Shown here: positions 3,691 through 49,493 of the stretch, one piece after another
How the letters are laid out: each line of letters starts with the position of its first letter
Position numbering within the stretch: position 1 is the first letter of the stretch
From: an uncultured Bacteroidales bacterium
Lineage (GTDB): Bacteria > Bacteroidota > Bacteroidia > Bacteroidales > JAADJA01
Assembly: GCA_964408535.1 (NCBI GenBank)
Contig: CAYOZZ010000381.1
Span: 1 to 51,297, forward strand
Direction of reading: 5' to 3'
DNA: 51,297 nucleotides
The notes under the pieces: model-generated
What the model was told of the DNA's origin: nothing
The model's input: only the letters and a program-made list of their open reading frames with translations
Database searches by the model: none
Position numbers and translations under genes: made by a program

Positions 3691-3709
3691 CTGTTTAAAT
3701 TAATACGGA

Positions 3710-4303: not shown

Positions 4304-4313
4304 TATAAAAGAT

Positions 4314-5426: not shown

Positions 5427-5457
5427 TATTTTATGAATTTTAAACATTGGTTAACAG

Positions 5458-6753: not shown

Positions 6754-6754
6754 T

Positions 6755-7780: not shown

Positions 7781-7864
7781 TATTCGGATACCGACAGGAT
7801 TTATATAAATAGTGAATTATAACTTTACTGTTGTTTTAACGTTGGCTGAATAAATAATTTACAA

Positions 7865-24273: not shown

Positions 24274-25434
24274 ATGAAAACAGTAAAATTTGCACTCATA
24301 GCTTTCATCGTTTCATTTGTAACGATAACCGTAAACGCCCAGAATCAGGGTGTGGCAATCAACAGCGACGGCGCACAGGCAGACCAGTCTGCAATGCTTG
24401 ACGTAAAATCTACAACAGGCGGAATCTTAATTCCCCGGATGACACAGACACAGCGTAACAATATCAGCTCTCCGGCAACCGGACTTCTGGTTTATCAGAC
24501 AGACAATACCGACGGTTTTTACTATTATGACGGTGCCGGCTGGAATTACATCGGGGCTCCAGATAATGACTGGACCGTTAACGGCAATGACCTTTACAAC
24601 AATAATTCGGGTAATGTGGGAATAGGCACAAATTCTCCCGGTGCAAAACTTGAGGTTGCCGGACATATCTGGCAGACAGGAACGGGAAACTCTGTTTTTC
24701 TCGGTGAGAGTGCCGGTGCTGCTGATGATCTTAGCGATAATGTTAATGTTTTTGTCGGAAAACAGGCAGGACAGTCGAATACTTCAGGAGAGAATAATGT
24801 TGCTATAGGGATGCAGGCATTATTGGCGAATACTTCAGGTGTAAGAAATATTGCAATAGGCTCGGCGTCATCGTGGTTTAGTAACGGAAGTGGAAATATC
24901 TCAATCGGACATTCTACATCTGCAAACAATCTTGATGGAAGTTATAATACGGTTTTGGGTACGTGGGCTTTTAAAGCGTTTCAACATTCAAGTTATAATA
25001 CTGCATTAGGTTTTAATGCAATCGGCGATTTTCAGGCTATTCCCTGGGCTTTAGGGTATTATTCAGGTGACAGGCTCACAGCAGTCGGCTATGAAGCCGT
25101 GTTCAAAAACCAGGGAGGAGAGAGAAATACAGGTGTCGGATATAAAGCCTTGCACGAAAATGAAGACGGGAATCACAATACTGCTATTGGTTACGGTGCT
25201 TCTGAAAATCTTGACGGATTGGATAATACGACAGCCCTCGGCTATGGAGCAGAACCGACTGCAAGCAACCAGGTTGTGCTGGGTAATGCTAGTGTTACTC
25301 AGGTTAAAACAGCCGGTGCTATTACAATAGGTGGAAGTAATGCTACTACGGAAGCAGGAACTATAAGATTTGACTCCGGGACAGGTCATTTCTATGGGTA
25401 CAACGGAACATCCTGGGTTCAGTTGGATAATTAA
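24274..25434 (+). CDS. Secreted fibre-like repeat protein (YadA-head/Hep_Hag-like NxAxGxxA repeats) lacking any recognisable anchor
   Basis: 386 aa. Signal peptide (...TVNAQ), N-terminal LIPRMTQTQRNNI...GLLVYQTDNTDGFYYYDGAGW, then NVGIGTNSPGAKLEVAG. Many repeats follow (NNVAIGMQA, RNIAIGSAS, YNTVLGTWA, YNTALGFNA, RNTGVGYKA, HNTAIGYGA, NTTALGYGA). The C-terminal GTIRFDSGTGHFYGYNGTSW echoes the N-terminal motif. Confidence 0.75.
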   Translation: MKTVKFALIAFIVSFVTITVNAQNQGVAINSDGAQADQSAMLDVKSTTGGILIPRMTQTQRNNISSPATGLLVYQTDNTDGFYYYDGAGWNYIGAPDNDWTVNGNDLYNNNSGNVGIGTNSPGAKLEVAGHIWQTGTGNSVFLGESAGAADDLSDNVNVFVGKQAGQSNTSGENNVAIGMQALLANTSGVRNIAIGSASSWFSNGSGNISIGHSTSANNLDGSYNTVLGTWAFKAFQHSSYNTALGFNAIGDFQAIPWALGYYSGDRLTAVGYEAVFKNQGGERNTGVGYKALHENEDGNHNTAIGYGASENLDGLDNTTALGYGAEPTASNQVVLGNASVTQVKTAGAITIGGSNATTEAGTIRFDSGTGHFYGYNGTSWVQLDN

Positions 25435-32798: not shown

Positions 32799-33620
32799 TT
32801 ATTCCACAAAAATAGTATCGGTTACAACTGAGCAGGCTGTGAAATATCCAAGTCCTCCGTTGGTGATATTGGAAGGCAAATTTCCCCTTTCTTCATCAAA
32901 TAGTGAGCCCTGCCATACGGTTTCGGCATTAAGTGCCCTGAGATATTCCGCATAATCATCGGTTAATGAATACTTTCGCTCAATTATAATACTGCCCTTT
33001 GGGAAAAATACCTCTTCTTTGTCAGGTGCGAAAAGTGCAATAATATCTAATGTTTTAAAAGTATAGTAAAACAATTTTTCAGATGTCGGTTCCCCGGGTG
33101 AATTATTCGGAAGATGCGACCAGTCAATTAATATTTCATACATATTTTGTGTCTCGGCATCATAATCCGAAGCTACCCAGCCTATTTTAAATAAGCTGTC
33201 TTTATTATCGGCAGGTGCATAAATCAATGGCGTAAGCGGTATGACAGGAACAATTTGGGTCTCTGCATTGTAGGTCTTTCCGTTATAAATTATTGAAAGA
33301 TAATATGTTTGTCCCAATGTTGCTGCAAACGAAATATCACTGAGGTAAACTCCGGGATTATCAATGCTTTCGGTACAGTCTGTAGATTGATTTCCATTGC
33401 TTAGCGATACTTCTGCACCTGTCACAGGTAAAGGTTGCTGATTTTGGGATGACATCGGCCTGGTGAGCTTAATCTCCTGGTGCCGAACCTCATTTGTTAG
33501 TATTGCCTCAACCACAATTGTGTCGGGTATGTCAATTGGAAATTCCTTGCCGGCTTTTTCTTCACAACTGCCGGACATTATCGTAATCAAAAGAATTAGT
33601 ATTGTCTTGTTTTTTATCAT
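32799..33620 (-). CDS. DUF4249-like lipoprotein
   Basis: 273 aa. Lipoprotein signal (...IMSGSC). Positioned immediately downstream of a TonB-dependent receptor, as is typical for this family. Confidence 0.7.
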   Translation of the reverse strand: MIKNKTILILLITIMSGSCEEKAGKEFPIDIPDTIVVEAILTNEVRHQEIKLTRPMSSQNQQPLPVTGAEVSLSNGNQSTDCTESIDNPGVYLSDISFAATLGQTYYLSIIYNGKTYNAETQIVPVIPLTPLIYAPADNKDSLFKIGWVASDYDAETQNMYEILIDWSHLPNNSPGEPTSEKLFYYTFKTLDIIALFAPDKEEVFFPKGSIIIERKYSLTDDYAEYLRALNAETVWQGSLFDEERGNLPSNITNGGLGYFTACSVVTDTIFVE

Positions 33621-33663
33621 TATTTTTCACATTTTCAAAACATTCAATTATTAATCCAGCAAC

Positions 33664-36279
33664 CTACAATCTCAGCTTATAAGTTAACGACGGAACAGCT
33701 CCCATCAGGTAAAACTGTGTCGTTACATATTCTCTACCTCCGTATAAATCGGCAGGGACGACAAATTTTCCGTTTTTTGTTTCCACCTTGTTTGTGTTGT
33801 ACCAAACAGGATTGTGCCTGTTGTAAACATTAAAAAGAGCAAATGACAAACTGTGCATAAAATGTCGTCTTCTCTTGTTCAGCCTGTATTCCATTGAAAA
33901 ATCCAGACGATGATAATCGGGCAGACGGTCATTATGCTTATCACCGTAAACGGGGACGGAATAACCGTTATAATCATAAAATGCAACAGGCGTTGTAATA
34001 GCCGAGCCGGTATAATAAATCCAGTTTGCCGACATTTTAAAACGTTCGGTGAACTGATACGAAAGGTTTACCGAAAAATCATTCGGTCTGTCGTAGAACG
34101 CCGGAAACTCTTTCCCGTTATTTACATCTTTCATCTGTTTAAACGTTCTTGAATATGTATAACTTAGCCATCCCGACAGTCTCCCTTTTGTTTTTTTCAG
34201 AAAAAATTCAATCCCATACGACCAGGCATCGCCAAAGCGCAATTCCCCTTCGATCAACGGATTTAAAAGCAGGTTTGCATGCGACTCATATTCAATCTGA
34301 TGCCGCATATATTTATAGTATGCTTCCGTAGTAAATTTCAGATTGAGTTTACCGAACAATTTTTCAAATCCGATGGCAACCTGATCGGCTCGTTGGGGTT
34401 TGATATTTGTTCCTGCCGGCATCCAGACTTCAAATGATGAAAACGGCCCGATGGAATTTGAAAGCATTTGAATATATTGATGGTAAATACCGTAGCTCAG
34501 CGTAACAGAAGCCCCCGGGGTGACTCTGTACTTCAGACTGAGGCGCGGGTCAAGGTTCACAAATGTAATATAGGTCTTACTTCCGTCAAATGTAAGTGTG
34601 TCTTTTACGCTGTAATTGGTATCGAATGTATAGACCGTGGTCGGCCCCCTGTTCGACCAGACCGGCATTCTTAAACCGAAACGGTATGAAATTTTTTTTG
34701 TAACCTGATGCTCGATATTTGTATAAAAGGCACTCTTGGCAGAGCGGTTCCCGGGAACCCTGGGAATGTAAAACGCCGATGTGTCGTAAGTAAGATTACC
34801 GGGATTGAATTTATGAAAAGTTTGATTGAAACCAAACCGGAAGGTTATTTCAGGATTCATAAAGTATGTAAAATCGGCTTTTATACTGTAATTTGAAATT
34901 GCTGATATCCAGTGAGTTCCCTTTTCTGCAAGATCGTATTTATAAGAGCTGCCGTAAATTGTAAGATTTGAAAACAATCTGTTACTGAATATGTGATTCC
35001 ATCTGAATGTGGAAATCAGATTTGTCCAGATAACACCATTGTGACCCGATACATTTTTATTGTCAAGATAATCTTTACCGGTATAAAATGAAAAGTATAT
35101 CCTGTTATTATTATTGATTTGCCAGTTAAGTTTTGCATTTACATCATAGAAATAGAGATCAAGGGCGGGATTTTGTTTTCTGTACATCCACTGGAAGTTC
35201 GAATGGCGGAAAGATGTATAAAAAGAGCATTTTTCCTTAACCACCGGCCCTTCAACGGAGGCTCTGTATAGGAACGGACTAAGGACACCGTTTGCCTCGA
35301 ACCTGTTCAGGTTACCCTCTTTCGTGTTAATTTTGATAAGTGACGACAAAGGGTCGCCTTCGTTCACAGGCATATCGCTTTTGTATATCCGTATGTCTTT
35401 TGTCACTTCCGGAATAATTACCGAATAAAATCCGAAAAGATGAGCAGGATTGTAAACAGGGGCTTCATCAATAAGGATAAGGTTCTGGTCTTTGTTACCG
35501 CCTCTGACAAAAAAAAAGGCTGAGCCGTCACTGTGGGTTTCAATTCCGGGAAGCGTCTGCAAACTCTTAACCAGCCCCGTTTCGCCGGCAAATTCAGGAA
35601 GCTTGCTGATATTTACAGGAGTTAACCTGATACGGCTCATCTGACTTTTTCCGGGCATCTCTTCCTCAGGTTTCGATTCAACGACAACACCCTTTAAAAG
35701 ATTATAATCCGGTTTCAAACTCCGGTTAAGGACCATGTCTTTATCAAGATTGATTTCAAAACTCTGCAAATTATAACCGACATAGGAAATATTCAGTTTG
35801 TATTTCCCTTCAGGCAGTGTAAGTGAAAAGAAACCGTAAGAATTTGTTATTGTCCCGGTAAGTAAACTGTCAACCGAAACCGTTGCTCCGATTAAACTTT
35901 CTCCTGTTTCTAGGTCTTTTATTGTTCCGCTGACAGTATGTTTTTTCCCGGACTGTTTCTTCTTCCTTTTTTTTAGAATAATTTGCTTTTCAACCAGCAA
36001 ATAATCAATGTCCGTTTCCTCTGACAGTTTTTTAAGTAGTTGTTTTACAGTGTATTCTTTTTCTTTGACGGAAAGTTTCTTTTTCACATCAATATTTTGT
36101 TTGCTGTACGAGAAATTAATTCCGGTTTGATTGTTAATCTCTTTAATAAGTTCTTCAACGGTTATTTCCTGCTTGGAAACAGTTACCTTTTGTAATAATA
36201 GATCGGTTTGACACAGCGACTGAAAGCCCGAAACTAAAAAAATAAACACAAGTATATATTTGGTCTGTTGTTTTTGCAT
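33664..36279 (-). CDS. TonB-dependent receptor/transducer with N-terminal STN signalling domain and carboxypeptidase-regulatory-like domain
   Basis: 871 aa. Signal peptide, STN-like EELIKEINNQTGINFSYS, VSGTIKDLETGESLIGATVSV, plug and beta-barrel, and a C-terminal aromatic-rich strand. Confidence 0.9.
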   Translation of the reverse strand: MQKQQTKYILVFIFLVSGFQSLCQTDLLLQKVTVSKQEITVEELIKEINNQTGINFSYSKQNIDVKKKLSVKEKEYTVKQLLKKLSEETDIDYLLVEKQIILKKRKKKQSGKKHTVSGTIKDLETGESLIGATVSVDSLLTGTITNSYGFFSLTLPEGKYKLNISYVGYNLQSFEINLDKDMVLNRSLKPDYNLLKGVVVESKPEEEMPGKSQMSRIRLTPVNISKLPEFAGETGLVKSLQTLPGIETHSDGSAFFFVRGGNKDQNLILIDEAPVYNPAHLFGFYSVIIPEVTKDIRIYKSDMPVNEGDPLSSLIKINTKEGNLNRFEANGVLSPFLYRASVEGPVVKEKCSFYTSFRHSNFQWMYRKQNPALDLYFYDVNAKLNWQINNNNRIYFSFYTGKDYLDNKNVSGHNGVIWTNLISTFRWNHIFSNRLFSNLTIYGSSYKYDLAEKGTHWISAISNYSIKADFTYFMNPEITFRFGFNQTFHKFNPGNLTYDTSAFYIPRVPGNRSAKSAFYTNIEHQVTKKISYRFGLRMPVWSNRGPTTVYTFDTNYSVKDTLTFDGSKTYITFVNLDPRLSLKYRVTPGASVTLSYGIYHQYIQMLSNSIGPFSSFEVWMPAGTNIKPQRADQVAIGFEKLFGKLNLKFTTEAYYKYMRHQIEYESHANLLLNPLIEGELRFGDAWSYGIEFFLKKTKGRLSGWLSYTYSRTFKQMKDVNNGKEFPAFYDRPNDFSVNLSYQFTERFKMSANWIYYTGSAITTPVAFYDYNGYSVPVYGDKHNDRLPDYHRLDFSMEYRLNKRRRHFMHSLSFALFNVYNRHNPVWYNTNKVETKNGKFVVPADLYGGREYVTTQFYLMGAVPSLTYKLRL

Positions 36280-36307
36280 TAAAATATTATTGTTGATAGT
36301 GACTCAC

Positions 36308-37345
36308 CTAATCACACCCTTCCCCCGTAATCAATATCTTATTATCTTTTTTAACAACCGACAAATCAAAAGTTTCCGTTAAAATATTAAGTACGGCATC
36401 AAGCGATAAATTGTCGTAAACAGCTGTAAGTCTGCAATCATTCAAAGCCCCGCCGGACAATTCAATACTTACATCATAGGCTTCCGATATATCTCTGACG
36501 ACATCAGCAAGAGGGTCATCCTCAAAAATAAATTTCTTCGTTTTCCAGGCGAGATAGTTACGGCTTTTGTTCGTCTCTTTAATAAGTTCTCCCGTCGTTT
36601 TTGAGAAGACACCCCGGTCGCCCTTGGAAAGAATTATCTCTTTACCGGTTTCCGCCCTTAAGGCCACCTTGCCCGTATTAACGATAACTTCAACAAACGG
36701 ATTGTCAGGTCTTGCATCAACATTGAAAGATGTTCCGAGAACCTCAATCAGGGTATTTTCCGCTTCGATAATAAACGGCTTTTCCTCGTTTCGTTTTACT
36801 TCAAAAAAGGCTTCTCCTTTTAGCAATACTTTTCTGTTTTTTCTTCCGAATTTTTCAGGATAAGTAATCACCGAGTTTTTATTTAAAGCAACAATTGTCC
36901 CGTCGGGAAGCGTTGCCGACTTAACCGATTCCATTGCTATTACATTTTCAACACCCGGTTTTGCAATTATTCTGTAAAGAAAAAATGAAGCGGTCAGTGC
37001 AATCAGAACGATGGCTGCAATTTTCAAAATATGTGTAAATGATTTTTCCGGTGGTAGTGTCCGAACTTTTCCGGTATCTTTTTCTTCTCCGGCAAACAGA
37101 ATGTTCTCCAGTTTATGCCATTCCTTATCAATATCCGTGTCAACAACCGGTTTTGTTGTCTGTGTCAGTATCCAGGCCTGCCTGTAGCGGTTGAACAGTT
37201 TTTTATTCTCATCACCGGAAAGCACCCATTTTTCAAGTAAAGCAACCTCCTCTTTTGTTGCCTCATTTGCGAGGTATTTTCCTGTCAGTATTGAATAGTC
37301 CGTATGTTCGCCGTTATTTTTCATTGTTGTTCGTTCATTGTACAC
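36308..37345 (-). CDS. FecR-family anti-sigma factor
   Basis: 345 aa. N-terminal cytoplasmic region (LLEKWV...), a single TM (ILKIAAIVLIALTASFFLY), and a periplasmic FecR domain. An alternative start exists at 37324. Confidence 0.85.
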   Translation of the reverse strand: MYNERTTMKNNGEHTDYSILTGKYLANEATKEEVALLEKWVLSGDENKKLFNRYRQAWILTQTTKPVVDTDIDKEWHKLENILFAGEEKDTGKVRTLPPEKSFTHILKIAAIVLIALTASFFLYRIIAKPGVENVIAMESVKSATLPDGTIVALNKNSVITYPEKFGRKNRKVLLKGEAFFEVKRNEEKPFIIEAENTLIEVLGTSFNVDARPDNPFVEVIVNTGKVALRAETGKEIILSKGDRGVFSKTTGELIKETNKSRNYLAWKTKKFIFEDDPLADVVRDISEAYDVSIELSGGALNDCRLTAVYDNLSLDAVLNILTETFDLSVVKKDNKILITGEGCD

Positions 37346-37363
37346 CTGAAATCAGTTCTACCC

Positions 37364-37915
37364 TTATATTAAATATAACAAAATTAAAACATAAATATAA
37401 TCTTTCAACTCCTCCCGTAATATTTTTAATGCCTTCGACATCTGAACCTCCACAGTTTTAACTGAAATGCCCAGTTTTTCGGCAACCTCTCTATATTTCA
37501 ATTCTTCAAACCTGTTTAGCATAAAGACCTGTTTACATCTTTCGGGCAACTTGTCAAGTGCTGCCGAAATCTTTGTTTCCAGTTCTGCAACGGATATTGC
37601 ATCACTTTCATAAGCCGTTTCATAACCGGCAATATCAACATCAAGCACACTGCTTCTGAATTTCTTGTTGTCACGTATATGGTTCAGACAGCGGTTTCTA
37701 ACGGAAGTAAAAAGATATGACTTGACAGATTTTCCCGAATCAATGGTTTTTTTATTCTGCCAGAGGTTTACAAACACTTTCTGTGTTATCTCTTTTGCAG
37801 TGTCGTCGTCAAAGACATAACTCTTAGCAAAATTGCACAATTCACCGAAATACTGCCTGAACAATTGTTCGAACAGTTTTTTGTCAAGATTTGAGTATGC
37901 AATATTTTCAGCCAA
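37364..37915 (-). CDS. ECF-type RNA polymerase sigma-70 factor
   Basis: 183 aa. Region 2 (FRQYFGELCNFAKSYV) and region 4 HTH (LKYREVAEKLGISVKTVEVQMSKAL). It lies 18 nt upstream of the FecR gene. Confidence 0.9.
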   Translation of the reverse strand: MAENIAYSNLDKKLFEQLFRQYFGELCNFAKSYVFDDDTAKEITQKVFVNLWQNKKTIDSGKSVKSYLFTSVRNRCLNHIRDNKKFRSSVLDVDIAGYETAYESDAISVAELETKISAALDKLPERCKQVFMLNRFEELKYREVAEKLGISVKTVEVQMSKALKILREELKDYIYVLILLYLI

Positions 37916-38140: not shown

Positions 38141-41100
38141 ATGAAGCGATTGATTACTTATTTCGTTTTAAGCCTTGCCTGGATTTTAACAACCCGGACA
38201 GACTTGTCTGCCGGACAACTGTCAAACAGTTCCGACAGAATGAATTATGAAAACTTTCGGTTTGACAAAACCGGATCGAAAGAAGGAAAATTTCATCAAA
38301 ACAAACCTAAAACCAGAAACCATACACGAAACCGGAAAGATTTGTGGTTACATTCGAAAGCTGTGAAGAGACCCTACTCCGGTAATAAATCGGGATCAAA
38401 TGATACCATCCTTGCTAATTATGATTTTTATACTATCCCTGAAGCATCTTTTCTGATAGGAGGTGCGGAGCTTCCGGAGTTGCCTGCTGATTTTTTCGGA
38501 GCCGGTTCCGATCCATTCAGCGGAACCATTTATTTTGCCGGAGAAAATTCATACGGAAATATTGTTCCCTATCCCGATTTTGAAGTGGACAGAATGGAAA
38601 ATGCCTATTTTTCGACTCCGTATCCGTCAACTGACAATGTCGAAATATCTGTTTATGATATGTCTGTGATATCCACTGCCCCTATTACAGTTACATATAA
38701 TAACGGGCAATACAGCGAACAATGGAATGTGGAGATGTATTATTATACAAAGGAAACAAAAGCGGGAGACTCAGTCAGTATTACTAAAACGGACGAAACG
38801 GGTGGATACTTTAGTTACGGACCTATAAGGATTCAACCGTATTTCTCTTTTTGGAATGAAAATGGATTAATAGACTGGGATACCGGTGACAGTATTCCTC
38901 CGATAGTCTATTATTCTGTTAACGATTTAGATTGGTCTCATTCACCTATCGGTCAGGATTTTAATCCTTCGGATGATGATACACTGCATATGAATTCAAC
39001 AGCCGGGGAGTCATTTTTTGACCTGTTTCCTTTAATGTTAAGGTATGAAGATTTTACCGTTTATGCCGATGATGCAGGTAATGTTTCAGGTAGCGGCTCA
39101 GGATTTAATAATGGTGAATGGTACTATTATCCCGGGTTGAATTTGTGGATAACCTGGTTTTATGATCACCAGCTGGATATGGACAGGGTTAAGGAATACT
39201 ATATTGATTTGTCTGTAAGTTCCACAGGAACTCCCTCTAATGCAGAGTTTTATCTTGGTTGGGCAACACCGGAATGGACCAATTTCGGCGGAGTACCGGA
39301 TGAGCCTCCGTTACCGCAGTATCTGCCCAATCCGCAGGAGGAAGAAACTAATATAGCCCTTTTCGATTCGTTTTTATCCGGGGAAATAGACGGTACGGTT
39401 TATCCTTACATTGACTACCAGATAGCAGAATATAATCCTCAATGGGTATGTATAGCGGTAAGAGGAGAAAATTTCGGGGCAGAATACGGCTATTCCGAAC
39501 ATATATGTTTTGATCCCGGTTGGGATAATGATGCGTTTGACTGGGGAGATGCACCTGACCCGGCATATCCGACACTTGCAGTAAACAATGGTGCCCGTAA
39601 TAGAATTTTTATTCAGGAATGGGATGATCCTCTTGCCTTAGGTGACGATGTTGACGGGGAGCCGGACGGACAACCGGATGCCGTTGCCTTAGGTGATGAT
39701 TACAACGGTTTGGACGATGAGAACGGATTAATTGAAATTTCCGAATTAGTACAGGGAAGTGAGGCTTCGATGACTGTTAGTTCTAATCGAACAGGAGGAT
39801 ATTTTAATGCCTGGCTTGATTTTAATGCCGACGGCGACTGGGATGATGAAAACGAACATATTTTTATCAATGAACAGATATGGGACAGTCCGGTTGTTCT
39901 GAGCTTTGATGTGCCTTTTGAAGCAGTGCCCGGACAAACAATGCCCCGCCTGCGGTACAGCTCTTTTGCAGGCTCAGGATATTCAGGCCCTGCCCTTGAC
40001 GGTGAAGTGGAAGACTATGCTGTTAATTTGGAGGCGTTCGGAAATAAATTGGAACAATTACCGGATTCTACATTAGCCGGTTATGAGGCTCATGATTACA
40101 ATAGTGGAGGTGTTTACTCTGTTTTATACGTAGCTGACGACTGGGAATGTGAAGGCGGCTGGGTTAACAAAATAGAATGGTGGGGCTATTACCCAATGTA
40201 TCAAGGAGTTGAGTTGAGAGGCTCAGGAATAGACCATTTTAATGTCAGGATACTATATCATTACCCTGAAGACTGTACACCTGCTAACTGGGAATTATAT
40301 ACAATGGATATTCCTTTCGATTCGGTATATGAAACAGCAACCGGATGGACAAATAATTTAAACAATAATGTTTATCATTACGAATGTAACCTGGCCGAGC
40401 CTTTTATACAGCATCAGGGAGAAAAATACTGGCTTGCAATATCTGCAATTTCAAACAACCCTGATGATCCGGTGCTTTGGAGTTGGCAGGAATCGGCAAA
40501 CCTGCAGGAACCGTCATTTTGCGGCGGTCGGTACAAAGAGTGGCCTAACGGACAATGGGATGAAATCGTCAGGGGGGAATGGCCTGTTTTATATCCCGAT
40601 TATGCTTTTGTGATACATTCCATGGCACCTCAACCTGCCGATTTTGGTGATGCGCCGGATAATGAAGACGATGATTATCAGGTAATCTTGTCGGATTACG
40701 GAGCCGTTCATATAATTGATAATGCCGTATATCTCGGTTCAACGGTGGATGCAGAGCCTGACGGTCAGCCTGATAATAATGCTCTTGGTGACGACAACTC
40801 CGGAACAGACGATGAAGACGGTGTCGTATTTCTCACACCTCTCATAGCCGGTAATATTGCAACAATACAGGTCACAGCTTCTGTTAATGGTTACCTGAAT
40901 GCCTGGGCCGATTTTGCACATTATCAATCGTGGGAAGATCAACAGTTGCTTGACGACTATCTGCTCAATCAAGGCGTTAATGTAATCTCTTTCCCGGTTC
41001 CTTTCAATGCTGTAGCTGGAAATACATATTTCAGGTTCAGATTCTCGACAGTACCGGGACTTGAAGAGTACGGTCAGGCACCTGACGGCGAAGTGGAGGA

Positions 41101-43570
41101 CTATATGGCTGAGGTAACCATTGAGGATAATAAATGGTTACAACCGCCATCCGAAAATCTCTCAGGTAAACCTGCACACGATTATTATGTATATGACAAC
41201 GGACCTGTTTATACCTATAATCAATTGGCTGACGATTGGATTTGTATGGGAGGAAATGTTATCACTGTTAAATGGTGGGGTTCTTATGATATTGACGAAA
41301 ATACGGGGCAGGAAATACGCGGTTCGGGAATTAATTATTGGCATTTAGGTATTAACCTCAATAACGACCAGTATAATGAACCTTCTTCAAGTGAGGAATG
41401 GAGCGCCGATGTGCCGTTTTCACAAATTCAGGAGATTAATACGGGATTTGTCAATTCAAGCGGTGCGGCAATATATGAATATAGTTACGATTTGCCTGTA
41501 CCGTTTGCCCAGATAGCAGGTAATCATTACTGGTTCACTATCGTGGCATTTTGCAATGATGCTGCAGATCCGGCACACTGGAATTGGCAATTGTCATCTT
41601 GCGGCGATATTCGCTTGAATCCTGCAATGTTTTTCTACTATGATGATCCGTCTTGGTATTTACTGTTTTACAATAATGCATATGTGGATCTGGCATTTGA
41701 GATTTTTTCCGATTCTTACACCGGACTTGACTATGGTGATGCCCCGGATATCTATGCTACACTATTTGAGGATGACGGTGCGGCTCATGTCATTGATACT
41801 ACACTTTACCTCGGTGATAAGATTGACGCCGAAGCTGACGGCCAACCCGGAACTTTTGCACTCGGAGACGACCAGAACGGGATTGATGATGAAGACGGTA
41901 TAACTTTTCCTTCATTGTACCGTGGTGCTAATGTAACTTTTACGGTTAAGGCTTCGGCACAGGGTTATTTAAATGCCTGGATTGATTTTGACGGCAACGG
42001 TTCCTGGGAAGAGGGTGATGAACACATATTCGTTGACGAACCGTTAGATGCAGGTTTTAATTATATTTCGGGATATATTCCTGAGGGTGCGGATGCCGGA
42101 TATACATTCGCGAGATTCAGGTTCAGTACCGCCACAGGACTGGAACCCACAGGTATTGCACCTGACGGTGAAGTGGAAGATTATCGTGTTTATATTGAAT
42201 CCGAACCTCCGTTTAAATGGGAACAACCTCCTGAAACGGAGTTCTATGCCCTCCAGGTGAATGCGGCACCGGGTTATTTGCTCGCCGACGACTTTGTTTG
42301 TGACAAGACCGGACCTTTGACCGGAATAAGTATTTACGGCAGTTGGCTGAATAATGACCCTCCGGCAGGTGGTGTTGGAGATGCTGTGTTCACTCTTGCC
42401 ATTCATGATGCAATACCTAACGGTGAAGGAACAATGCCAGGAAACGTGCTCTGGACTCATACTTATCAACCAGGTGAATTCGAATATCAATTTATTATTT
42501 ACGAACAAAACTTCGATTGGCAGAATCCTGACGGAAGCGGTTATTTGGTTTCACCAAATATGGCTTGCATAAGATATGATTTCGAAATTCCAGAAGGCGA
42601 TTTCAAACAGGAAGGGACTCCATATCTACCGAAAAAATATTGGCTTACTCTTCAGGTTTCATCCGGCACTAATTATCTGTTCGGCTGGAACAGCACTTAT
42701 CATGATGAAAAGATAGGCGTTACGAGTTCTGGTAACGGTATGTGGACGACAGGTACCGAACCTTACAACGGAATTTGGGATTCTGTATTTTATGCCAACG
42801 GCCATCCGTATGAGGGTGACCCGGTAGGTTTTGCCTTTGATATAAAAGGGCTGGAAGACCCGTATTTGTTAATAGATTTGCAAGTGGTACCGGAATTTGC
42901 AAGTAATGAGTATAAAGGGAAAGGTAATCCCGACTTTTCGGAAACTGTAATCCCGTTACATCAGCCTTTTGACGGTAATCCGGGAGCAAGGTGGTACTAT
43001 GATGGAGATGAGCAGGTTGAGTATATCCCGTATGCGGGATTTACTTTGGACTGGATATTAGTTGAGTTACGAGATGCTGAATCTGCAGCCGACGCGACCG
43101 ATGCAACTGTTATAGGAAGAGTGCCTGCATTTGTGGATATGGACGGTGATGTTTTCAGCATTAATAATGAGAGTTATTTGAAAATTTACTGTAATCCGGT
43201 TAATATACCGTATATAGCGGTTTGGCAAAGAAATCACCTCGGTATATTATCTTCCGGACCGGTTTATTGGAACGGAGTGGAATATGAATACGACTTCACA
43301 ACAGGACCGGAATCTGCCTATGGGGGTACGGAGGCTTTGAAAAACTTCGGTCAGTCAACTTTCGGTTGGGATATATGGGGTATGTATGGCGGTGATGCCA
43401 ATGGAGACGGTGTTGTTGATATCCAAAATGATCTTCAGACCTGGAATTTGCAATCGGGAGAACACGGTTATCTTGAAGCTGATGTAAATCTTGATTCGGA
43501 AGTTAATAACAAGGATAAAGACGATGTGATTATTGAAAATCAGGGTAAGAGTTGCCTTATTCCTCAATAA
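38141..43570 (+). CDS. Giant secreted protein: 3 x (GEVED-type domain + unassigned WxQPP/ADDW-C module) with a dockerin-like C-terminus and no T9SS sorting domain
   Basis: 1809 aa with a signal peptide. Three D[WFY]GDAPD...GEVEDY modules (nt 39536-40024, 40640-41110, 41729-42190). Each is followed by a module of about 195-213 aa starting K[LW][EL]Q[LP]P (nt 40046-40630, 41129-41710, 42212-42850). The C-terminal GDANGDGVVDIQND...ADVNLDSEVNNKDKD (nt 43388-43531) resembles paired dockerin Ca-binding loops. Confidence 0.85.
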   Translation: MKRLITYFVLSLAWILTTRTDLSAGQLSNSSDRMNYENFRFDKTGSKEGKFHQNKPKTRNHTRNRKDLWLHSKAVKRPYSGNKSGSNDTILANYDFYTIPEASFLIGGAELPELPADFFGAGSDPFSGTIYFAGENSYGNIVPYPDFEVDRMENAYFSTPYPSTDNVEISVYDMSVISTAPITVTYNNGQYSEQWNVEMYYYTKETKAGDSVSITKTDETGGYFSYGPIRIQPYFSFWNENGLIDWDTGDSIPPIVYYSVNDLDWSHSPIGQDFNPSDDDTLHMNSTAGESFFDLFPLMLRYEDFTVYADDAGNVSGSGSGFNNGEWYYYPGLNLWITWFYDHQLDMDRVKEYYIDLSVSSTGTPSNAEFYLGWATPEWTNFGGVPDEPPLPQYLPNPQEEETNIALFDSFLSGEIDGTVYPYIDYQIAEYNPQWVCIAVRGENFGAEYGYSEHICFDPGWDNDAFDWGDAPDPAYPTLAVNNGARNRIFIQEWDDPLALGDDVDGEPDGQPDAVALGDDYNGLDDENGLIEISELVQGSEASMTVSSNRTGGYFNAWLDFNADGDWDDENEHIFINEQIWDSPVVLSFDVPFEAVPGQTMPRLRYSSFAGSGYSGPALDGEVEDYAVNLEAFGNKLEQLPDSTLAGYEAHDYNSGGVYSVLYVADDWECEGGWVNKIEWWGYYPMYQGVELRGSGIDHFNVRILYHYPEDCTPANWELYTMDIPFDSVYETATGWTNNLNNNVYHYECNLAEPFIQHQGEKYWLAISAISNNPDDPVLWSWQESANLQEPSFCGGRYKEWPNGQWDEIVRGEWPVLYPDYAFVIHSMAPQPADFGDAPDNEDDDYQVILSDYGAVHIIDNAVYLGSTVDAEPDGQPDNNALGDDNSGTDDEDGVVFLTPLIAGNIATIQVTASVNGYLNAWADFAHYQSWEDQQLLDDYLLNQGVNVISFPVPFNAVAGNTYFRFRFSTVPGLEEYGQAPDGEVEDYMAEVTIEDNKWLQPPSENLSGKPAHDYYVYDNGPVYTYNQLADDWICMGGNVITVKWWGSYDIDENTGQEIRGSGINYWHLGINLNNDQYNEPSSSEEWSADVPFSQIQEINTGFVNSSGAAIYEYSYDLPVPFAQIAGNHYWFTIVAFCNDAADPAHWNWQLSSCGDIRLNPAMFFYYDDPSWYLLFYNNAYVDLAFEIFSDSYTGLDYGDAPDIYATLFEDDGAAHVIDTTLYLGDKIDAEADGQPGTFALGDDQNGIDDEDGITFPSLYRGANVTFTVKASAQGYLNAWIDFDGNGSWEEGDEHIFVDEPLDAGFNYISGYIPEGADAGYTFARFRFSTATGLEPTGIAPDGEVEDYRVYIESEPPFKWEQPPETEFYALQVNAAPGYLLADDFVCDKTGPLTGISIYGSWLNNDPPAGGVGDAVFTLAIHDAIPNGEGTMPGNVLWTHTYQPGEFEYQFIIYEQNFDWQNPDGSGYLVSPNMACIRYDFEIPEGDFKQEGTPYLPKKYWLTLQVSSGTNYLFGWNSTYHDEKIGVTSSGNGMWTTGTEPYNGIWDSVFYANGHPYEGDPVGFAFDIKGLEDPYLLIDLQVVPEFASNEYKGKGNPDFSETVIPLHQPFDGNPGARWYYDGDEQVEYIPYAGFTLDWILVELRDAESAADATDATVIGRVPAFVDMDGDVFSINNESYLKIYCNPVNIPYIAVWQRNHLGILSSGPVYWNGVEYEYDFTTGPESAYGGTEALKNFGQSTFGWDIWGMYGGDANGDGVVDIQNDLQTWNLQSGEHGYLEADVNLDSEVNNKDKDDVIIENQGKSCLIPQ

Positions 43571-43952: not shown

Positions 43953-46900
43953 ATGAAACGACTATTACTTTTAATTACATTTGTCAGTGTTTTTGTGCTG
44001 ACAGATAATGTGCAAGCTCAAAAGAGCAAAGTTGTACATCCGACAAAGGTGACAACGGCAATTTATTTTGATGAAATACCCTCTTTAAAGGATTTACCTC
44101 CGGTTGACGATCAATATTACATTGATAACTGGGGAAAATCTGTTGCTGAAGGAGCAGAACATGAGAGTGAAGAGGCACCTAATTATTCCAACTGGAAAGA
44201 TGAAGGTCCTGATCCTGTTTGGCAAAAAGAAAACGGATGGCTGCAAAGTCCAAAAGCATTAATTCAGAATTTTGCAGGACAAAGCAGCCCGTATTTACCA
44301 TCCGATTGTAATGGTACTGTAGGCCCGAATCATTTTATGCAAACTGTAAATACAACTTATGCTATTTGGGATAAGGCAGGGAATCAGGTAGTTGCACCAA
44401 CGGCTATGAATACTCTGTTTTCCGGCGTAGCAGGTTCGGGAAATAATGACGGAGACCCTTTGATATTATTTGATGAACAGGCCGATAAATGGGTAGCAAT
44501 AGAGTTTTCACTGGATGCATATCTGCATGGAGGGACCTATGATTATATGTTATTTGCAGTATCACAGACAAATGACCCGACAGGTGCCTGGTGGCGCTGG
44601 TCCTTTATTATGAACGGATTACCTGACTATGAAAAGGTTGGTATATGGCATGATGGTTATTATATGGGTACAAATTTAGGTTCAACATCTTCATCCGGAG
44701 ATGATGTCTATGTTTTTGAAAGAAGCGTAATGATTACCGGTGGTGCAAATCCACAGCAGGTTCAGTTTCATAACCCAAACAGGCCAAATAATGGTTTTCA
44801 TTGTATTATGCCCCTTGATGCAGACGGAGCAGCTCCTCCAAGCAGTTCACCCGGCCAATTCATAACAATAAATGATGATGCCTGGGGCGGTAGTGATGAA
44901 TTATGGATTTATGAATGTAATGTTGACTGGACAACACCTTCAAATTCGACTTTTTCAAGAACACAACAGATTTCCGTACCTGCATTTGATTCGCAATTCA
45001 ATTCCTGGGGAACGGGGGATATTGCACAATCCGGAACAAGCCAGCTTGTAGATGCTCAACCTTATGTTCTGATGGTTCGCGGGCAATATAAGAATTTTGG
45101 AACAGCGCAATCAATCGTATGCCTTCATACTGTTGATGTGGACGGAACAAATCATGCAGGTGAGCGGTGGTATGAATTGGAAAAAACTTCCCAAACAGAT
45201 CCTACCTGGTCCATAAGACAATCAGGAACTTATGCTCCTGATGCCAATAGCCGGTGGATGGGGAGTATAGCAATAAATGATAATCATGAAATAGCAATGG
45301 GTTATAGTGTTTCCGGTTCTTCAATGAGTCCGAATATCAGATATTGCGGTCAATCGGCATCAGGTAATGCTTCTGCAACAGGTGTAATGGATATTGCAGA
45401 ATCAGCAGATTTGGTTTCTTCACCACAGTCTCAGGGTTCATCCAACAGATGGGGAGATTATTCCTTGATGACGGTTGACCCCACCGATGGGATTACGTTT
45501 TGGTACACTGATGAATATTATAATAGCGGTAAAAAAACCCGGATATTAAGTTTTACAATAGGTTCCTCCGTGCTGACAGCTCAGTTTAGCGGTACTCCGA
45601 CATCAGTGGATGTGGGAAATTCCGTTACTTTTACTGATGCTTCCTACGGCCCGAACCCGATAACATCCTGGAACTGGAGTTTCCCCGGAGGGACACCTTC
45701 AAGTTACAGCGGTCAAAATCCTCCACCGATTACTTACAATACAGTAGGAACTTATAATGTTACTTTGACTGTTGGTGACGGTTCGTCAACGGATGTGGAG
45801 ACTAAAACGAATTACATAAATGTTATTAACTGTACTGTTAGCTCGTATCCTTGGTCCGAAGGCTTTGAAAATGGAGGAAATATACCGGATTGCTGGTCGA
45901 ATGAATATGTGACCGATACTCAGGATTGGGCTTATCAGGCCGGCGGCCACAGTGGAAATCCTTCAGGAGCTCACACAGGTAGTTATAATGCTTATTTATA
46001 CAATGGTTCAACAACAGCCAATGTAACAAAACTTGTAACACCACAACTGGATATGTCAGGTTTATCATCTGCAACTTTAACATTCTGGCATACCCAGGCA
46101 TTATGGTCACCTGATCAGGATGAGTTAAGAATTTATTATAAATCTTCTTCAGGAGGTTCCTGGACCTTATTAGCAGAATATACAAATAACATAACATCCT
46201 GGACACAGGAAACAATAAACCTACCCGGATTGAGTGGAGATTATTATATCGCATTTGAGGGAACTGCAAAATATGGGCATGGAGTTTGCGTTGATGATGT
46301 TTATGTGGACGGCGTGGCCGGTGGTTCGCCTCCGGTTGCAGATTTCTCTGCCGATGACGTTACGCCGGCTGTCGGCCAAACTGTAACTTTTACTGACCTC
46401 TCATCAGATTCTCCCACATCTTGGTCATGGAGTTTTTCTCCGGCTACTATTACTTATGTAGGCGGTACATCTTCTTCATCACAAAACCCGCAGGTTACTT
46501 TTGATGCCACCGGTACTTATTCGGTTACTTTAACGGCAACTAATGCTTATGGAAGTGATGATGAGGTGAAAACAAATTACATCACAGCCGGTTCTTCCTG
46601 TCCTCCTGTTACCTCTTTTCCATATACCCAGGATTTTGATTCATGGACGACAAGCTCACCCGCATATCAGTGTACTGCCGACGGAAGTGTTGCTTTGCAA
46701 GATTGCTGGACAAATGTAACCGGCGATGATTTAGATTGGGATATTTTATCAGGGGCGACCGCCTCAGGTAGTACGGGTCCCTCATCAGATCATACGTCAG
46801 GCTCGGGAAATTATTTATATACCGAATCATCTTCCTGTAATTCAAAAACAGGATATATAACGAGTCCTGTTTTTGATTTGAGTTCTTTTTCAAGTGCATC

Positions 46901-49493
46901 ATTAACTTTCTGGTATAATATGTATGGTTCAACAATGGGTACGATGTCTGTTCAGATATCTGTTGACGGAGGTTCTACATGGTCATCCGATGAATGGAGT
47001 TTAAGTGGAGATCAAGGTAGCTCCTGGCAACTTGCAAACGTTTCATTGAATTCTTATTTATCTGCAAATACTGTAGTTCGTTTTACAGGTTTTACCGGTA
47101 CATCATATACATCTGATATGGCAATTGACGATATAACTGTTAATGCATCTTCAAGTGGCCCGGTTAATGATAATTGTTCCGGTGCCATTGCTATTAATGA
47201 AGTTACCGATTACCCGTTTAATACAAGCAGTGCTACGGCAAGCGGAGCTAATCTTACTTGTGTTTACGGCTCACAGGTGGATTTATGGTATGCTTACACT
47301 GCAACATTTACGGGTGATGCCAGATTTGATTTATGTGGTAGTGGTTATGATACAGGTCTTGGTATTTGGGATGCCTGCGGAGGAACACAACTGGCTTGTA
47401 ACGATGATGACTGTGGTTTGCAGTCGGGGATTACTATGGCTGTAACAAGTGGTACAACTTACTATGTTCAGGTAACCGGATATAGTGGTGCAACAGGTTC
47501 CGGTGATTTGACAATCCGCCCGGTTAATGATAATTGTTCCGGTGCTATTGCAATAAATGAAGTTGTTGATCTTCCGTTTAATACAAGTGCTGCCACAGCC
47601 AGCGGTGTACAACCGAGTTGCGGCGGTAGTTCTACTCCTCCCGTTGATCTTTGGTATGCTTATACGGCAACAATTACCGGAAATGCGACTTTCGATTTAT
47701 GCGGAAGTTCTTTTGATACAAGATTAACAATTTGGGATGCCTGCGGAGGAACACAACTGGCTTGTAACGATGATGACTGTGGATTGCAATCAAGTATCTC
47801 AATGGCAGTTACAAGTGGAACAACTTATTATGTACAGGTTGGTGGATATAATTCGAATAAGGGTAACGGTGATTTGACTATTCAAGTTGTTGTTCCCGGT
47901 CTTTGGACCGGTGCAACATCGAATGACTGGGGCGTAGGTGGTAACTGGGACGATAGTAATGTTCCGCTTGCTTCGACAGATGTTTTAATCCCGTCATCAC
48001 CTTCCGGAGGTAATTATCCCGAGACGAACTCAGGTGCAGGTGCCGAGTGTGCAAATCTTACAATTGAAGCCGGAGCACATCTTTTCATTCCGTCGAATAA
48101 TTCACTAACAGTTAACGGTACTTTAACTAACAGTGCCGGTACTTCAGGGTTGATTATCGAATCGGATGCAACTGGAACCGGTTCTTTGATTCATAATACT
48201 GCCGGAGTTGATGCTACGGTTGAAAGATATCTAACCGATGCAAGATGGCATTTTATCGGAATGCCTGTAAGCAGTGCTGTTGCAGGGGTATTTCACTTAC
48301 CTTCCGGCCATTCGGATATCTATCTGCGAACTCACATTGAAGCATCCAATACTTGGGACAATTGGATAGTACCTGTAACAACTCCTTTACTTCTTGGTCG
48401 TGGATATGAAACCTGGGTAGGAACACCGGGTGGTTTTAGCCAGCCCGAAACAATTGAGTTTGAAGGTGCTTTGAATACAGGTGATTATACTACCGGTACC
48501 GGAGGCTTTTACGGATTGCAATATACAACAGGGCATGGATTAAATATGATTTCCAATCCTTATCCTTCAGCTCTTGAAGCTGATATTGATACCTGGTCAA
48601 AGTCGAATATTGACAACTCTGTTTGGATTTGGTCTGATTCGGACGGTAATTATGTGTATTGGAACGGTACTGACGGCACAAACAGTAACGGCTGGGGAAC
48701 TATGACAGGAGGTGTTATTCCTGAAATGCAGGGATTCTTTGTTTTGGCTAACGGTGCTAATCCCTCGCTAACTATTCCTCAAAGCGGCAGAATTCATAGC
48801 AACCAGGCTTATTACAAAGATTCTTATGTTCCTGAAAATACATTAAGACTTGAAGTTACAGGTAATGATTATAAGGATGTTGCTTTTGTTTCATTTAATG
48901 AGTCGGCTACCGGAGAGTATGACAACAATCTTGATGTTCAAAAGCTTTTCGGTTTGGATGAAGCACCGCAACTCTATTCTGTAATTCCAAACAAACTCCT
49001 TTCTATTAACTCGCTTCCCGAACTGACCGAATCGAAAGTCGTTCAGCTCGGGTTTGAGTGCGGAGTTAACGGGCAATTTACATTTACTGCCGGTGATATT
49101 GAAAGTTTTACCGCTTATACTCCTATTTATCTTGAAGATACAAAAGAGGGTATCATTCGTAAATTAAATGATAATCCGGTTTATACCTTCAATCATAGCC
49201 CGTTGGATGATAATAATCGTTTTATCCTTCATTTCGGTGAGGTTAACGGTGTTGGAGATATCTCAACGGGAGGCATTAAGGTGTATTCAAACAAAAATAC
49301 GGTTTATGTACAGAAGCCGGCCGATTTTAACGGTATTGTATTTATCTACGATATGCTCGGCCAGGAGATAATCAGCCGTAAAGCCAATGGCGAAGGACTG
49401 ATGACAATTCCCGTAACAAACGGAACAGGTTATTACGTTGTAAAAGTTCAGTCGGATAATAATTTGATTACACAAAAAGTGTTTATTTACTAA
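43953..49493 (+). CDS. Giant multidomain T9SS cargo protein (unassigned N-terminal domain, 2 PKD-like, 2 MAM/jelly-roll-like and 2 Cys-rich PPC-like modules, shared C-terminal module, T9SS sorting domain)
   Basis: 1846 aa with a signal peptide. PKD-like repeats at about nt 45590-45830 and 46340-46590. MAM-like modules (CWSNEY...VCVDDVYV; CWTNVTGDDLDWD...MAIDDITV). Tandem PVNDNC...GDLTI modules. C-terminal IVFIYDMLGQEI...GYYVVKVQSDNNLITQKVFIY. Confidence 0.9.
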   Translation: MKRLLLLITFVSVFVLTDNVQAQKSKVVHPTKVTTAIYFDEIPSLKDLPPVDDQYYIDNWGKSVAEGAEHESEEAPNYSNWKDEGPDPVWQKENGWLQSPKALIQNFAGQSSPYLPSDCNGTVGPNHFMQTVNTTYAIWDKAGNQVVAPTAMNTLFSGVAGSGNNDGDPLILFDEQADKWVAIEFSLDAYLHGGTYDYMLFAVSQTNDPTGAWWRWSFIMNGLPDYEKVGIWHDGYYMGTNLGSTSSSGDDVYVFERSVMITGGANPQQVQFHNPNRPNNGFHCIMPLDADGAAPPSSSPGQFITINDDAWGGSDELWIYECNVDWTTPSNSTFSRTQQISVPAFDSQFNSWGTGDIAQSGTSQLVDAQPYVLMVRGQYKNFGTAQSIVCLHTVDVDGTNHAGERWYELEKTSQTDPTWSIRQSGTYAPDANSRWMGSIAINDNHEIAMGYSVSGSSMSPNIRYCGQSASGNASATGVMDIAESADLVSSPQSQGSSNRWGDYSLMTVDPTDGITFWYTDEYYNSGKKTRILSFTIGSSVLTAQFSGTPTSVDVGNSVTFTDASYGPNPITSWNWSFPGGTPSSYSGQNPPPITYNTVGTYNVTLTVGDGSSTDVETKTNYINVINCTVSSYPWSEGFENGGNIPDCWSNEYVTDTQDWAYQAGGHSGNPSGAHTGSYNAYLYNGSTTANVTKLVTPQLDMSGLSSATLTFWHTQALWSPDQDELRIYYKSSSGGSWTLLAEYTNNITSWTQETINLPGLSGDYYIAFEGTAKYGHGVCVDDVYVDGVAGGSPPVADFSADDVTPAVGQTVTFTDLSSDSPTSWSWSFSPATITYVGGTSSSSQNPQVTFDATGTYSVTLTATNAYGSDDEVKTNYITAGSSCPPVTSFPYTQDFDSWTTSSPAYQCTADGSVALQDCWTNVTGDDLDWDILSGATASGSTGPSSDHTSGSGNYLYTESSSCNSKTGYITSPVFDLSSFSSASLTFWYNMYGSTMGTMSVQISVDGGSTWSSDEWSLSGDQGSSWQLANVSLNSYLSANTVVRFTGFTGTSYTSDMAIDDITVNASSSGPVNDNCSGAIAINEVTDYPFNTSSATASGANLTCVYGSQVDLWYAYTATFTGDARFDLCGSGYDTGLGIWDACGGTQLACNDDDCGLQSGITMAVTSGTTYYVQVTGYSGATGSGDLTIRPVNDNCSGAIAINEVVDLPFNTSAATASGVQPSCGGSSTPPVDLWYAYTATITGNATFDLCGSSFDTRLTIWDACGGTQLACNDDDCGLQSSISMAVTSGTTYYVQVGGYNSNKGNGDLTIQVVVPGLWTGATSNDWGVGGNWDDSNVPLASTDVLIPSSPSGGNYPETNSGAGAECANLTIEAGAHLFIPSNNSLTVNGTLTNSAGTSGLIIESDATGTGSLIHNTAGVDATVERYLTDARWHFIGMPVSSAVAGVFHLPSGHSDIYLRTHIEASNTWDNWIVPVTTPLLLGRGYETWVGTPGGFSQPETIEFEGALNTGDYTTGTGGFYGLQYTTGHGLNMISNPYPSALEADIDTWSKSNIDNSVWIWSDSDGNYVYWNGTDGTNSNGWGTMTGGVIPEMQGFFVLANGANPSLTIPQSGRIHSNQAYYKDSYVPENTLRLEVTGNDYKDVAFVSFNESATGEYDNNLDVQKLFGLDEAPQLYSVIPNKLLSINSLPELTESKVVQLGFECGVNGQFTFTAGDIESFTAYTPIYLEDTKEGIIRKLNDNPVYTFNHSPLDDNNRFILHFGEVNGVGDISTGGIKVYSNKNTVYVQKPADFNGIVFIYDMLGQEIISRKANGEGLMTIPVTNGTGYYVVKVQSDNNLITQKVFIY
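47160..47885 (+). repeat. In-frame tandem duplication (360 + 366 nt) encoding two Cys-rich PPC-like modules
   Basis: Copy A is 47160-47519 and copy B is 47520-47885. A 53-nt stretch is identical at 47364-47416 and 47730-47782, and the first 28 nt or so are also identical. The rest is diverged. Confidence 0.9.

Follow-up and report, generated by a model that had tools for sequence, protein, structure and literature searches.

The last 240 residues of an acidic, 1809-residue protein from an uncultured Bacteroidales bacterium belong to a large family of C-terminal modules, and the protein is encoded by the gene at positions 38141 to 43570 of contig CAYOZZ010000381.1 (assembly GCA_964408535.1; the window hereafter is the whole analysed stretch of 51,297 nucleotides). 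We propose that this module serves as a C-terminal tag, independent of the cargo, on many secreted proteins of uncultured Bacteroidales and of some Ignavibacteria and Chlorobiota metagenome-assembled genomes (MAGs), which would dock its carrier in a Ca-dependent manner to partner proteins bearing cohesins and so hold it at the cell surface or within a multi-protein assembly; in homologs, the position of the tag appears to be taken by a type IX secretion system (T9SS) sorting domain of type A. The carrier itself would be a Sec-exported, strongly acidic, Ca-binding, adhesin-like or glycan-binding surface protein with an N-terminal head (aa 87-460), three tandem units and the ~240-aa module, each unit combining an acidic Ca-loop region with a GEVED beta-sandwich and a DUF7901 domain predicted as a beta-sandwich or jelly-roll with an ADDxxC / FxQ / YW / W site. 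Judging from sequence comparisons and structure prediction, we see about an even chance that the module is a cohesin-docking surface tag of such a protein. The gene and the parts of its module are:

38141..43570, plus strand: whole gene for the predicted secreted, acidic multi-domain protein of 1809 aa, the stop codon lying within this range
42848..43567, plus strand: conserved C-terminal module, aa 1570-1809, delimited by profile search and reaching the C-terminus of the protein
43028..43399, plus strand: beta-sandwich core of the module, aa ~1630-1753, as modelled by AlphaFold2, with the motifs DWILVELR and RNHLGILSS
43382..43567, plus strand: dockerin-like tail, aa 1748-1809, with EF-hand-type loops and with Dockerin_1 matches in the equivalent tails of relatives
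43394-43429, plus strand: EF-hand-type loop 1, aa 1752-1763, a DxNxD loop
43481-43516, plus strand: EF-hand-type loop 2, aa 1781-1792, a DxNxD loop

The module is 42% identical over these 240 residues to the C-terminus of a frameshifted giant open reading frame (ORF) in another Bacteroidales MAG. When a three-sequence profile was searched against 1.84 billion cluster representatives (clusters at 50% identity), 11,981 clusters were retrieved at E<=1e-3, 7,218 at E<=1e-10 and 1,483 at E<=1e-30. In 229 of the 273 members collected (84%), no more than two residues follow the module, and the consensus ends in W.PN.G..SQVP[EDNQ]-COOH; the corresponding terminal motif of the 1809-aa protein is GKSCLIPQ. 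Scans of 59 full-length members against Pfam and NCBIfam, and of 49 short members against Pfam, returned no model for it, and in the sources the proteins are named either 'hypothetical protein' or after a passenger domain only. These passengers are diverse, comprising GEVED, PKD, beta-helix, LamG, MAM and FISUMP domains and cohesins, as well as C25, C1 and S8 peptidases, M36, GH18 and esterases, and numerous small enzymes (300-700 aa, with signal peptides) bear the module. By a crude heuristic, a signal-peptide-like N-terminus is present in 156 of the 230 members that start with M (68%).

Matching genomes are nearly all MAGs of uncultured Bacteroidales, Lentimicrobiaceae included, with a few Ignavibacteriaceae and Chlorobiota, and carry several copies each. 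The organisms named in the sources of module proteins are Bacteroidales, Lentimicrobiaceae, Saprospiraceae, Ignavibacteriaceae and Chlorobiota MAGs, to which a single Thermoplasmatota label is added. This label ('Candidatus Thermoplasmatota archaeon') is borne by the best-scoring relative, P0051, a protein of 508 aa made of two tandem modules and little else, and may reflect mis-binning, the other named matches being Bacteroidota or relatives. Module genes are often clustered, 14 of 80 loci holding two or more within 3 kb; at locus L084 (1-16676), three successive genes end in the module, namely those for two C25 peptidases of gingipain-like type, which contain MAM and GEVED respectively, and that for the 2891-aa homolog P0003. 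A seemingly 'stand-alone' module protein of 236 aa (P0050) is encoded by an ORF at 8001-8711 that overlaps a 1765-aa ORF at 2759-8056 (L001 2759-8711), and probably represents the C-terminus of a giant protein cut off by a frameshift; the module likewise closes the LTD/PKD protein before it, and close by lies a gene for a PID_CTERM protein. A large sub-family of small proteins (P0211-P0309, ~297 aa) consists of a signal peptide, a short and conserved 'SxSWTLGE..TET.......LTQGFQQP' segment and the module.

The C-terminal position is not absolute. Internal copies are present in 16 of 149 members, one example being a module that precedes a FISUMP domain, and the module was also found N-terminally or in tandem (two, three or five copies). 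One protein, P0089, has it near the N-terminus, preceded by the same SxSWTLGE-type leader as in the small proteins above, and ends in a genuine type A domain of the T9SS (45 bits). Such internal, tandem and N-terminal copies, together with P0089, suggest the behaviour of an autonomous binding domain. Among homologs sharing the GEVED and DUF7901 domains, P0001-P0004 and P0016 end in the module, and P0008 (by its source name) and P0026 (by eye) have a T9SS type A tail instead.

What this domain might bind is suggested by its last part. An earlier note, made from the sequence alone, had seen two DxNxD loops like those of a type I dockerin. The loops are there, with their starts 29 residues apart, the second canonical and the first having D1, N3 and D5, but the dockerin profile fails on the protein itself (E 1.8), and to judge from its relatives the tail is the last 60 aa of the ~240-aa module and not a free-standing type I dockerin. 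Dockerin membership is supported at the level of the family. The module tails of three relatives score above the gathering threshold of Dockerin_1 (PF00404), namely P0057 (33.2 bits at 438-486, within a module copy at 265-492), P0196 (27.1 bits) and P0051 (25.1 bits). Across 274 aligned modules, loop 1 keeps D (95%), N/D (91%), D/N (91%), G (79%), I/V (99%) and D (97%), and loop 2 keeps D (99%), N (81%), D/N (95%), V (76%) and D (99%), the conserved positions being EF-hand positions 1, 3, 5 and 12 and the hydrophobic one at 8. Cohesins (PF00963) occur in 5 of 59 module-bearing proteins (~8%), in scaffoldin-like layouts; P0061 combines three cohesin stretches with the module, and P0189 has a signal peptide, a cohesin and the module. 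The relatives above the cut-off, the loops kept in the 274 modules and the co-occurrence with cohesins thus argue for a dockerin in the family although this one protein fails the profile.

Chain 2vn5_B, a dockerin, is the best PDB sequence match (E 0.38), and among PDB sequences the family profile matches dockerin chains only, 2vn5_B (E 0.055) and 2vn6_B (E 0.16). The AlphaFold2 model of the module, built from 49 sequences, contains a beta-sandwich with block-mean predicted local distance difference test (pLDDT) values of 85-95 over model residues 71-180. Its eight best Foldseek matches in the PDB, none of them significant, all come from type II X-module-dockerin chains of clostridia (4u3s_B, 2b59_B, 5m0y_B, 3kcp_A, three 4fl4 chains and 4wi0_B). 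On this basis we interpret the module as an X-module-like beta-sandwich joined to a divergent dockerin.

Several observations weigh against the docking proposal. Dockerin_1 gives no match on the whole 1809-aa protein and stays below its cut-off on the last 100 aa (9.3 bits versus 22.9, E 1.8), so that in this protein the loops escape profile detection even if three relatives' tails pass, and it reaches E<0.1 in just one of the 49 short family members. Position 12 of loop 1 is N here, where 97% of the family have a Ca-chelating D; the closest orthologs likewise have N or T, and the first Ca site may be weakened in all of them. The AlphaFold2 block means fall to ~39-65 across most of the tail, which is modelled with two short helices, and the Foldseek matches to X-module-dockerin chains are non-significant (E 0.04-0.3, template modelling (TM) score 0.23-0.40). 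No cohesin gene lies within the 51-kb window, and no conserved partner gene was found near 80 module loci when the ORFs in 3-kb flanks were clustered. Such a partner, adjoining module genes as PorP/SprF does for the T9SS type B C-terminal domain (CTD), was sought as a candidate and yielded only antisense artefacts and passenger domains. Docking, finally, leaves the crossing of the outer membrane unexplained for a protein with neither a T9SS signal nor a lipobox.

The X-module-dockerin dyads of cellulosomal scaffoldins (Clostridium thermocellum CipA/ScaA type II; 2b59_B, 4u3s_B, 5m0y_B, 3kcp_A, 4fl4) are the top Foldseek entries, though at a TM score of at most 0.40, and they resemble the module in having a beta-sandwich directly before duplicated EF-hand-type loops and in standing C-terminally on large non-catalytic multi-domain proteins, some of which also have cohesins. 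Yet their hosts are Firmicutes and not diderm Bacteroidota, they occur on scaffoldins only whereas the module sits on hundreds of cargo types, and the beta-sandwich of the module has motifs of its own (PLxQPY, DWVLVELR, RNHLG). To our knowledge, its PN.G..SQVP[ED] tail motif is not known from clostridial dockerins either. With type I dockerins (PF00404; 2vn5_B of Clostridium cellulolyticum endoglucanase A) the tail shares two 12-residue DxNxDxxxxxxD loops ~29 residues apart, loop 2 (DVNLDSEVNNKD) being near-identical to DVNLDNEVNSTD of 2vn5_B; it differs in a loop 1 without an acidic position 12, in the short helix after loop 2, and in that the tail was never seen in the module family without the preceding beta-sandwich.

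A biological parallel is offered by Cloacimonadota MAGs, for which a 'cellulosome-like' system was inferred, with dockerins at the C-termini of GH18, S8 and C25 enzymes and a cohesin scaffoldin carrying a T9SS CTD (PMC8542988). 'Ca. Stygibacter', like the hosts of the module, is a diderm of the FCB group with GH18, S8 and C25 enzymes bearing signal peptides and with scaffoldin-like cohesin proteins, its T9SS CTD serving for anchoring (PMC8542988). Its dockerins were found by standard InterPro models, unlike the module described here, a larger unit that standard models miss, and the genome studied here has no identified scaffoldin with a T9SS CTD. Nor does that paper account for the passage of such proteins through the outer membrane (PMC8542988). 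Apart from this precedent, the literature on dockerins, T9SS, Bacteroidales and Lentimicrobium yielded no mention of the module.

The absence of a recognisable T9SS signal, which the earlier note had remarked on in comparison with the neighbours, holds. None of the sorting-domain models of type A (TIGR04183/PF18962), B (TIGR04131) or C (NF033708) matches the 1809-aa protein; Por_Secre_tail of Pfam is absent even at E<=10 on C-terminal pieces, and an NCBIfam scan of the whole protein gives no family at E<=1. Two other proteins of the window served as positive controls for TIGR04183 (cut-off 23):

43953-49493: downstream protein of 1846 aa with MAM, PKD and GBD_T9SS_assoc and a type A CTD (TIGR04183, 24.3 bits)
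22756-24240: protein of 494 aa for which NCBIfam gives sorting-domain models only (TIGR04183, 36.6 bits)

Both also score on the type C (ChiA) model, below its cut-off. No other ORF of the window has the C-terminal module.

The module could nevertheless be a T9SS signal in its own right, a new class in which the 240 aa or the terminal ...SQVP[ED]-COOH are read by the translocon or attachment complex. With T9SS cargo such as gingipains and the two window neighbours (TIGR04183, TIGR04131, NF033708) the carriers share the phylum, the cargo classes and the layout of an N-terminal Sec signal with a cargo-independent C-terminal domain, and the exact C-terminal placement in 84% of members, the conserved terminal motif and the share of signal-peptide-like starts given above (68%, from a crude heuristic) would all suit a sorting signal. 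Passengers are of classic T9SS cargo types (C25 gingipain-like, M36, GH18, S8, PKD, MAM), homologs carry either the module or a type A CTD in that place (type A in P0008, and in P0026 as read by eye), and no other part of the protein accounts for outer-membrane crossing. The carriers whose sources name an organism are also confined, the Thermoplasmatota-labelled exception aside, to lineages taken to use T9SS, namely Bacteroidales, Lentimicrobiaceae, Saprospiraceae, Ignavibacteriaceae and Chlorobiota (sorting domains were looked for in this window only). We nevertheless regard a new sorting-signal class, the main rival to docking, as unlikely: neither this protein nor the 59 full-length members show similarity to types A, B or C (the 49 short members having been scanned against Pfam only), no T9SS CTD structure is among the top 50 Foldseek matches, and the module exceeds known CTDs about threefold in size (240 aa versus ~70-100 aa). 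The internal copies (16 of 149 members), the tandem arrays of two to five and the pairing of an N-terminal module with a true type A CTD in P0089 fit an autonomous binding domain better than a T9SS signal, which is why docking is preferred. The two roles are not mutually exclusive. More broadly, that the module stands for a secretion or attachment route missed by T9SS models, be it a fourth CTD class or cohesin hitch-hiking, is doubtful in our judgement; in its hitch-hiking form, folded cargo would dock in the periplasm to cohesin proteins with a true T9SS signal and cross the outer membrane with them. A dedicated sortase of the PorU2 type bearing the module was considered and rejected, as the PorU/PorU2 matches reach 39-50 bits against cut-offs of 420-450 and such proteins are therefore ordinary C25 peptidase cargo.

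That the dockerin profile fails on most members, that no conserved protein partner is encoded nearby and that the beta-sandwich core is the best conserved and best predicted part of the module could instead indicate Ca-dependent binding to a non-protein component of the envelope or matrix (lipopolysaccharide, capsule or exopolysaccharide), the EF-hand loops stabilising a lectin-like beta-sandwich. A polysaccharide synthesis and export cluster in the window (Wzc-like kinase, Poly_export, sugar-nucleotide enzymes) would go with this, circumstantially. Such a role leaves aside the cohesins in scaffoldin-like layouts in ~8% of module proteins and the three members above the dockerin threshold, and the module matches no carbohydrate-binding module or lectin family by Foldseek against the PDB, by profile search of PDB sequences or in Pfam; we hold it to be quite improbable. 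An adhesin of the RTX or Bap-like kind exported by type I secretion, in which the acidic repeats and the C-terminus would form the secretion signal, is brought to mind by the large size of the protein, its very acidic, Ca-binding-looking repeats and its conserved C-terminal region. We discarded it as very improbable, given the Sec-type N-terminal signal peptide, the lack of any RTX nonapeptide (PF00353) or other match related to type I secretion in Pfam and NCBIfam, the lack of adjacent genes for an ABC transporter, membrane fusion protein (MFP) or TolC, and the occurrence of the module on many small signal-peptide enzymes of 300-700 aa.

The cargo that the putative docking tag would carry in this protein comprises the following parts:

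38141..38212, plus strand: probable Sec signal peptide, aa 1-24 (MKRLITYFVLSLAWILTTRTDLSA), read by eye
38228..38410, plus strand: basic low-complexity stretch, aa 30-90, with 15 K/R in 61 aa
38399..39520, plus strand: conserved N-terminal domain, aa 87-460, defined by phmmer matches and lying outside Pfam
39536..40633, plus strand: super-repeat 1, aa 466-831, with an acidic Ca-loop region, GEVED at aa 554-629 and DUF7901 at aa 636-824
40634..41716, plus strand: super-repeat 2, aa 832-1192, with an acidic region, GEVED at aa 918-989 and DUF7901 at aa 998-1188
41726..42847, plus strand: super-repeat 3, aa 1196-1569, with an acidic region, GEVED at aa 1276-1350 and DUF7901 at aa 1359-1568
40133-40150, 41228-41245 and 42284-42301, plus strand: ADDxxC sites of the three DUF7901 copies, from a 46-copy comparison
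40403-40435, 41504-41536 and 42602-42646, plus strand: FxQ...YW sites of the three DUF7901 copies, from the same comparison

GEVED (PF20009) is matched by three domains totalling 123.3 bits (Pfam cut-off 24.4), in agreement with the earlier note, which had recognised the first half of the unit as GEVED-type. It had found the second half unassignable; this is in fact the Pfam family DUF7901 (PF25470), matched three times with 206.3 bits in total (cut-off 24), each match spanning model positions 2-203 or 2-204 of 205. DUF7901 is not a well-known family with a defined role: it has no function on record, and we found no papers on it. The two domains alternate strictly along the protein, whose membership in both families we take as established by these profile matches. 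The motifs that had been quoted for them recur in all three units, DGEVEDY starting at aa 620, 982 and 1342 and ADD[WF]xC at aa 665, 1030 and 1382, the DUF7901 of super-repeat 3 being a variant subtype ('LADDFxC..tGP'). The units of ~365 aa are 36-40% identical to one another in protein and ~64-65% identical in DNA (aligned positions of a global alignment, period ~1083 nt), and their DNA holds no long exact repeats; the duplication therefore appears to be old, as had been suggested.

A profile of the whole super-repeat shows that its first part exceeds the Pfam GEVED model and forms a unit of ~160 aa, in which an acidic D[WFY]GDAPD...DGQPD...DDEDG region is followed by the GEVED beta-sandwich. 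Many relatives have tandem arrays of this unit, P0004 with as many as nine copies, and DUF7901 is joined to it less often. The relatives are from MAGs of Bacteroidales, Krumholzibacteriota and Planctomycetota and join GEVED/DUF7901 units to S8 peptidase, BNR/sialidase, GH53 and beta-helix domains and to further extracellular ones. Structure prediction for super-repeat 3 (AlphaFold2, 21 sequences, mean pLDDT 84.7) gave two all-beta domains, with a poorly ordered acidic leader, the GEVED beta-sandwich and a ~200-aa all-beta DUF7901 with long hairpins. Foldseek against the PDB found for this two-domain model only generic two-beta-domain matches with TM scores of at most 0.28 by query length (CfaE adhesin, the immunoglobulin-like and galactose-binding pair of a bacterial sialidase, macroglobulin (MG) domains of C3b), and a DUF7901 profile search of PDB sequences found nothing.

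Across 46 DUF7901 copies from 24 proteins, hardly any variation is seen at ADD..C (Cys 100%), P, F.Q (Gln 98%), YW and W, which points to a functional pocket; the Cys is apparently unpaired. These residues could bind a sugar or a metal, or could form a reactive site such as a Cys-Gln thioester, and in the latter case the protein might be a covalent adhesin. The definition of GEVED comes from the fibrillar adhesin CshA, where the domain is regarded as a stalk domain (PMC10952558). The 1809-aa protein resembles CshA-family adhesins in being a large, putatively secreted, repetitive protein with GEVED and a distinct N-terminal region (PMC10952558), but CshA is Gram-positive, LPXTG-anchored and endowed with the ligand-binding domain NR2, whereas the protein studied here has no NR2 or sortase signal, and its GEVED stands in a ~160-aa unit with an acidic DxGDAPD...DGQPD...DDEDG region and alternates with DUF7901. 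An adhesin-like or glycan-binding role is thus a reasonable inference, against which it counts that its basis is only fold class and domain company, and that DUF7901 is a catalogued family without any characterised member.

The frame of the gene is unbroken, and its start is the first ATG following a stop. An identical protein with the same neighbours (P0001) comes from the NCBI MAG GCA_054028835.1, and the ortholog P0002 has the same architecture at 66% identity. Judged by eye, the N-terminus (MKR, a hydrophobic core of 15 residues, LSA|GQ) is a probable Sec signal peptide with no lipobox cysteine. The basic stretch that follows stands out from the rest of the protein, where K+R make up 3.1% and D+E 16.6%; P0002 is likewise basic at this position, and the stretch could be a propeptide or a segment binding the envelope or nucleic acid. 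The earlier note was right about both these features and about the presence of a further region of ~460 aa, but wrong to call the latter unique. The domain at aa 87-460, matched by no Pfam model, is common to P0006, P0022, P0024 and P0035 (~370 aa, phmmer E 3e-53 to 8e-78) and matched by P0011 across ~250 aa (phmmer E 4e-36), and P0036 and P0041 contain three or four copies of a ~130-aa sub-part.

The remaining genes of the window are for housekeeping and polysaccharide biosynthesis, apart from the following:

32799-37915, minus strand: divergent upstream cluster encoding an extracytoplasmic function (ECF) sigma factor, a FecR-type anti-sigma factor, a TonB-dependent receptor (STN, CarboxypepD_reg) and DUF4249
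24274-25434 and 16127-16732: ORFs of 386 aa and 201 aa without a Pfam match at the thresholds used

Conserved synteny of the upstream cluster with the gene studied here was considered and rejected, the cluster being absent beside the homologs P0003 and P0016 (the gene of P0002 starts 122 nt from its contig end, and its upstream side is not assessable), and we claim no regulatory link.

The concept of a dockerin tag has already been inferred for Cloacimonadota; the novelty here lies in the uncatalogued module, in its large size and in how widely it is used in Bacteroidales. Curated models leave blank the last 240 aa of this protein and likewise at least 7,000 clusters at 50% identity, and because the module is missing from these models its carriers are listed as 'hypothetical', with no predicted destination. 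The DUF7901 domain with its invariant ADDxxC/FxQ site would be a further candidate ligand-binding unit. Recognition of the tag would offer a way into the exoproteome of Bacteroidales that are abundant, anaerobic and uncultured, with its peptidases, chitinases, esterases and adhesins, and the module points to cohesin-dockerin assemblies in a diderm phylum. Surface display in Bacteroidota is thought to use T9SS sorting domains and lipoproteins, and the module raises the testable question of the route by which a signal-peptide protein without a T9SS signal or lipobox reaches the surface. If this proved to be a new route, thousands of exoproteins of uncultured Bacteroidales, gingipain-like peptidases included, would be exported and displayed by an undescribed mechanism.

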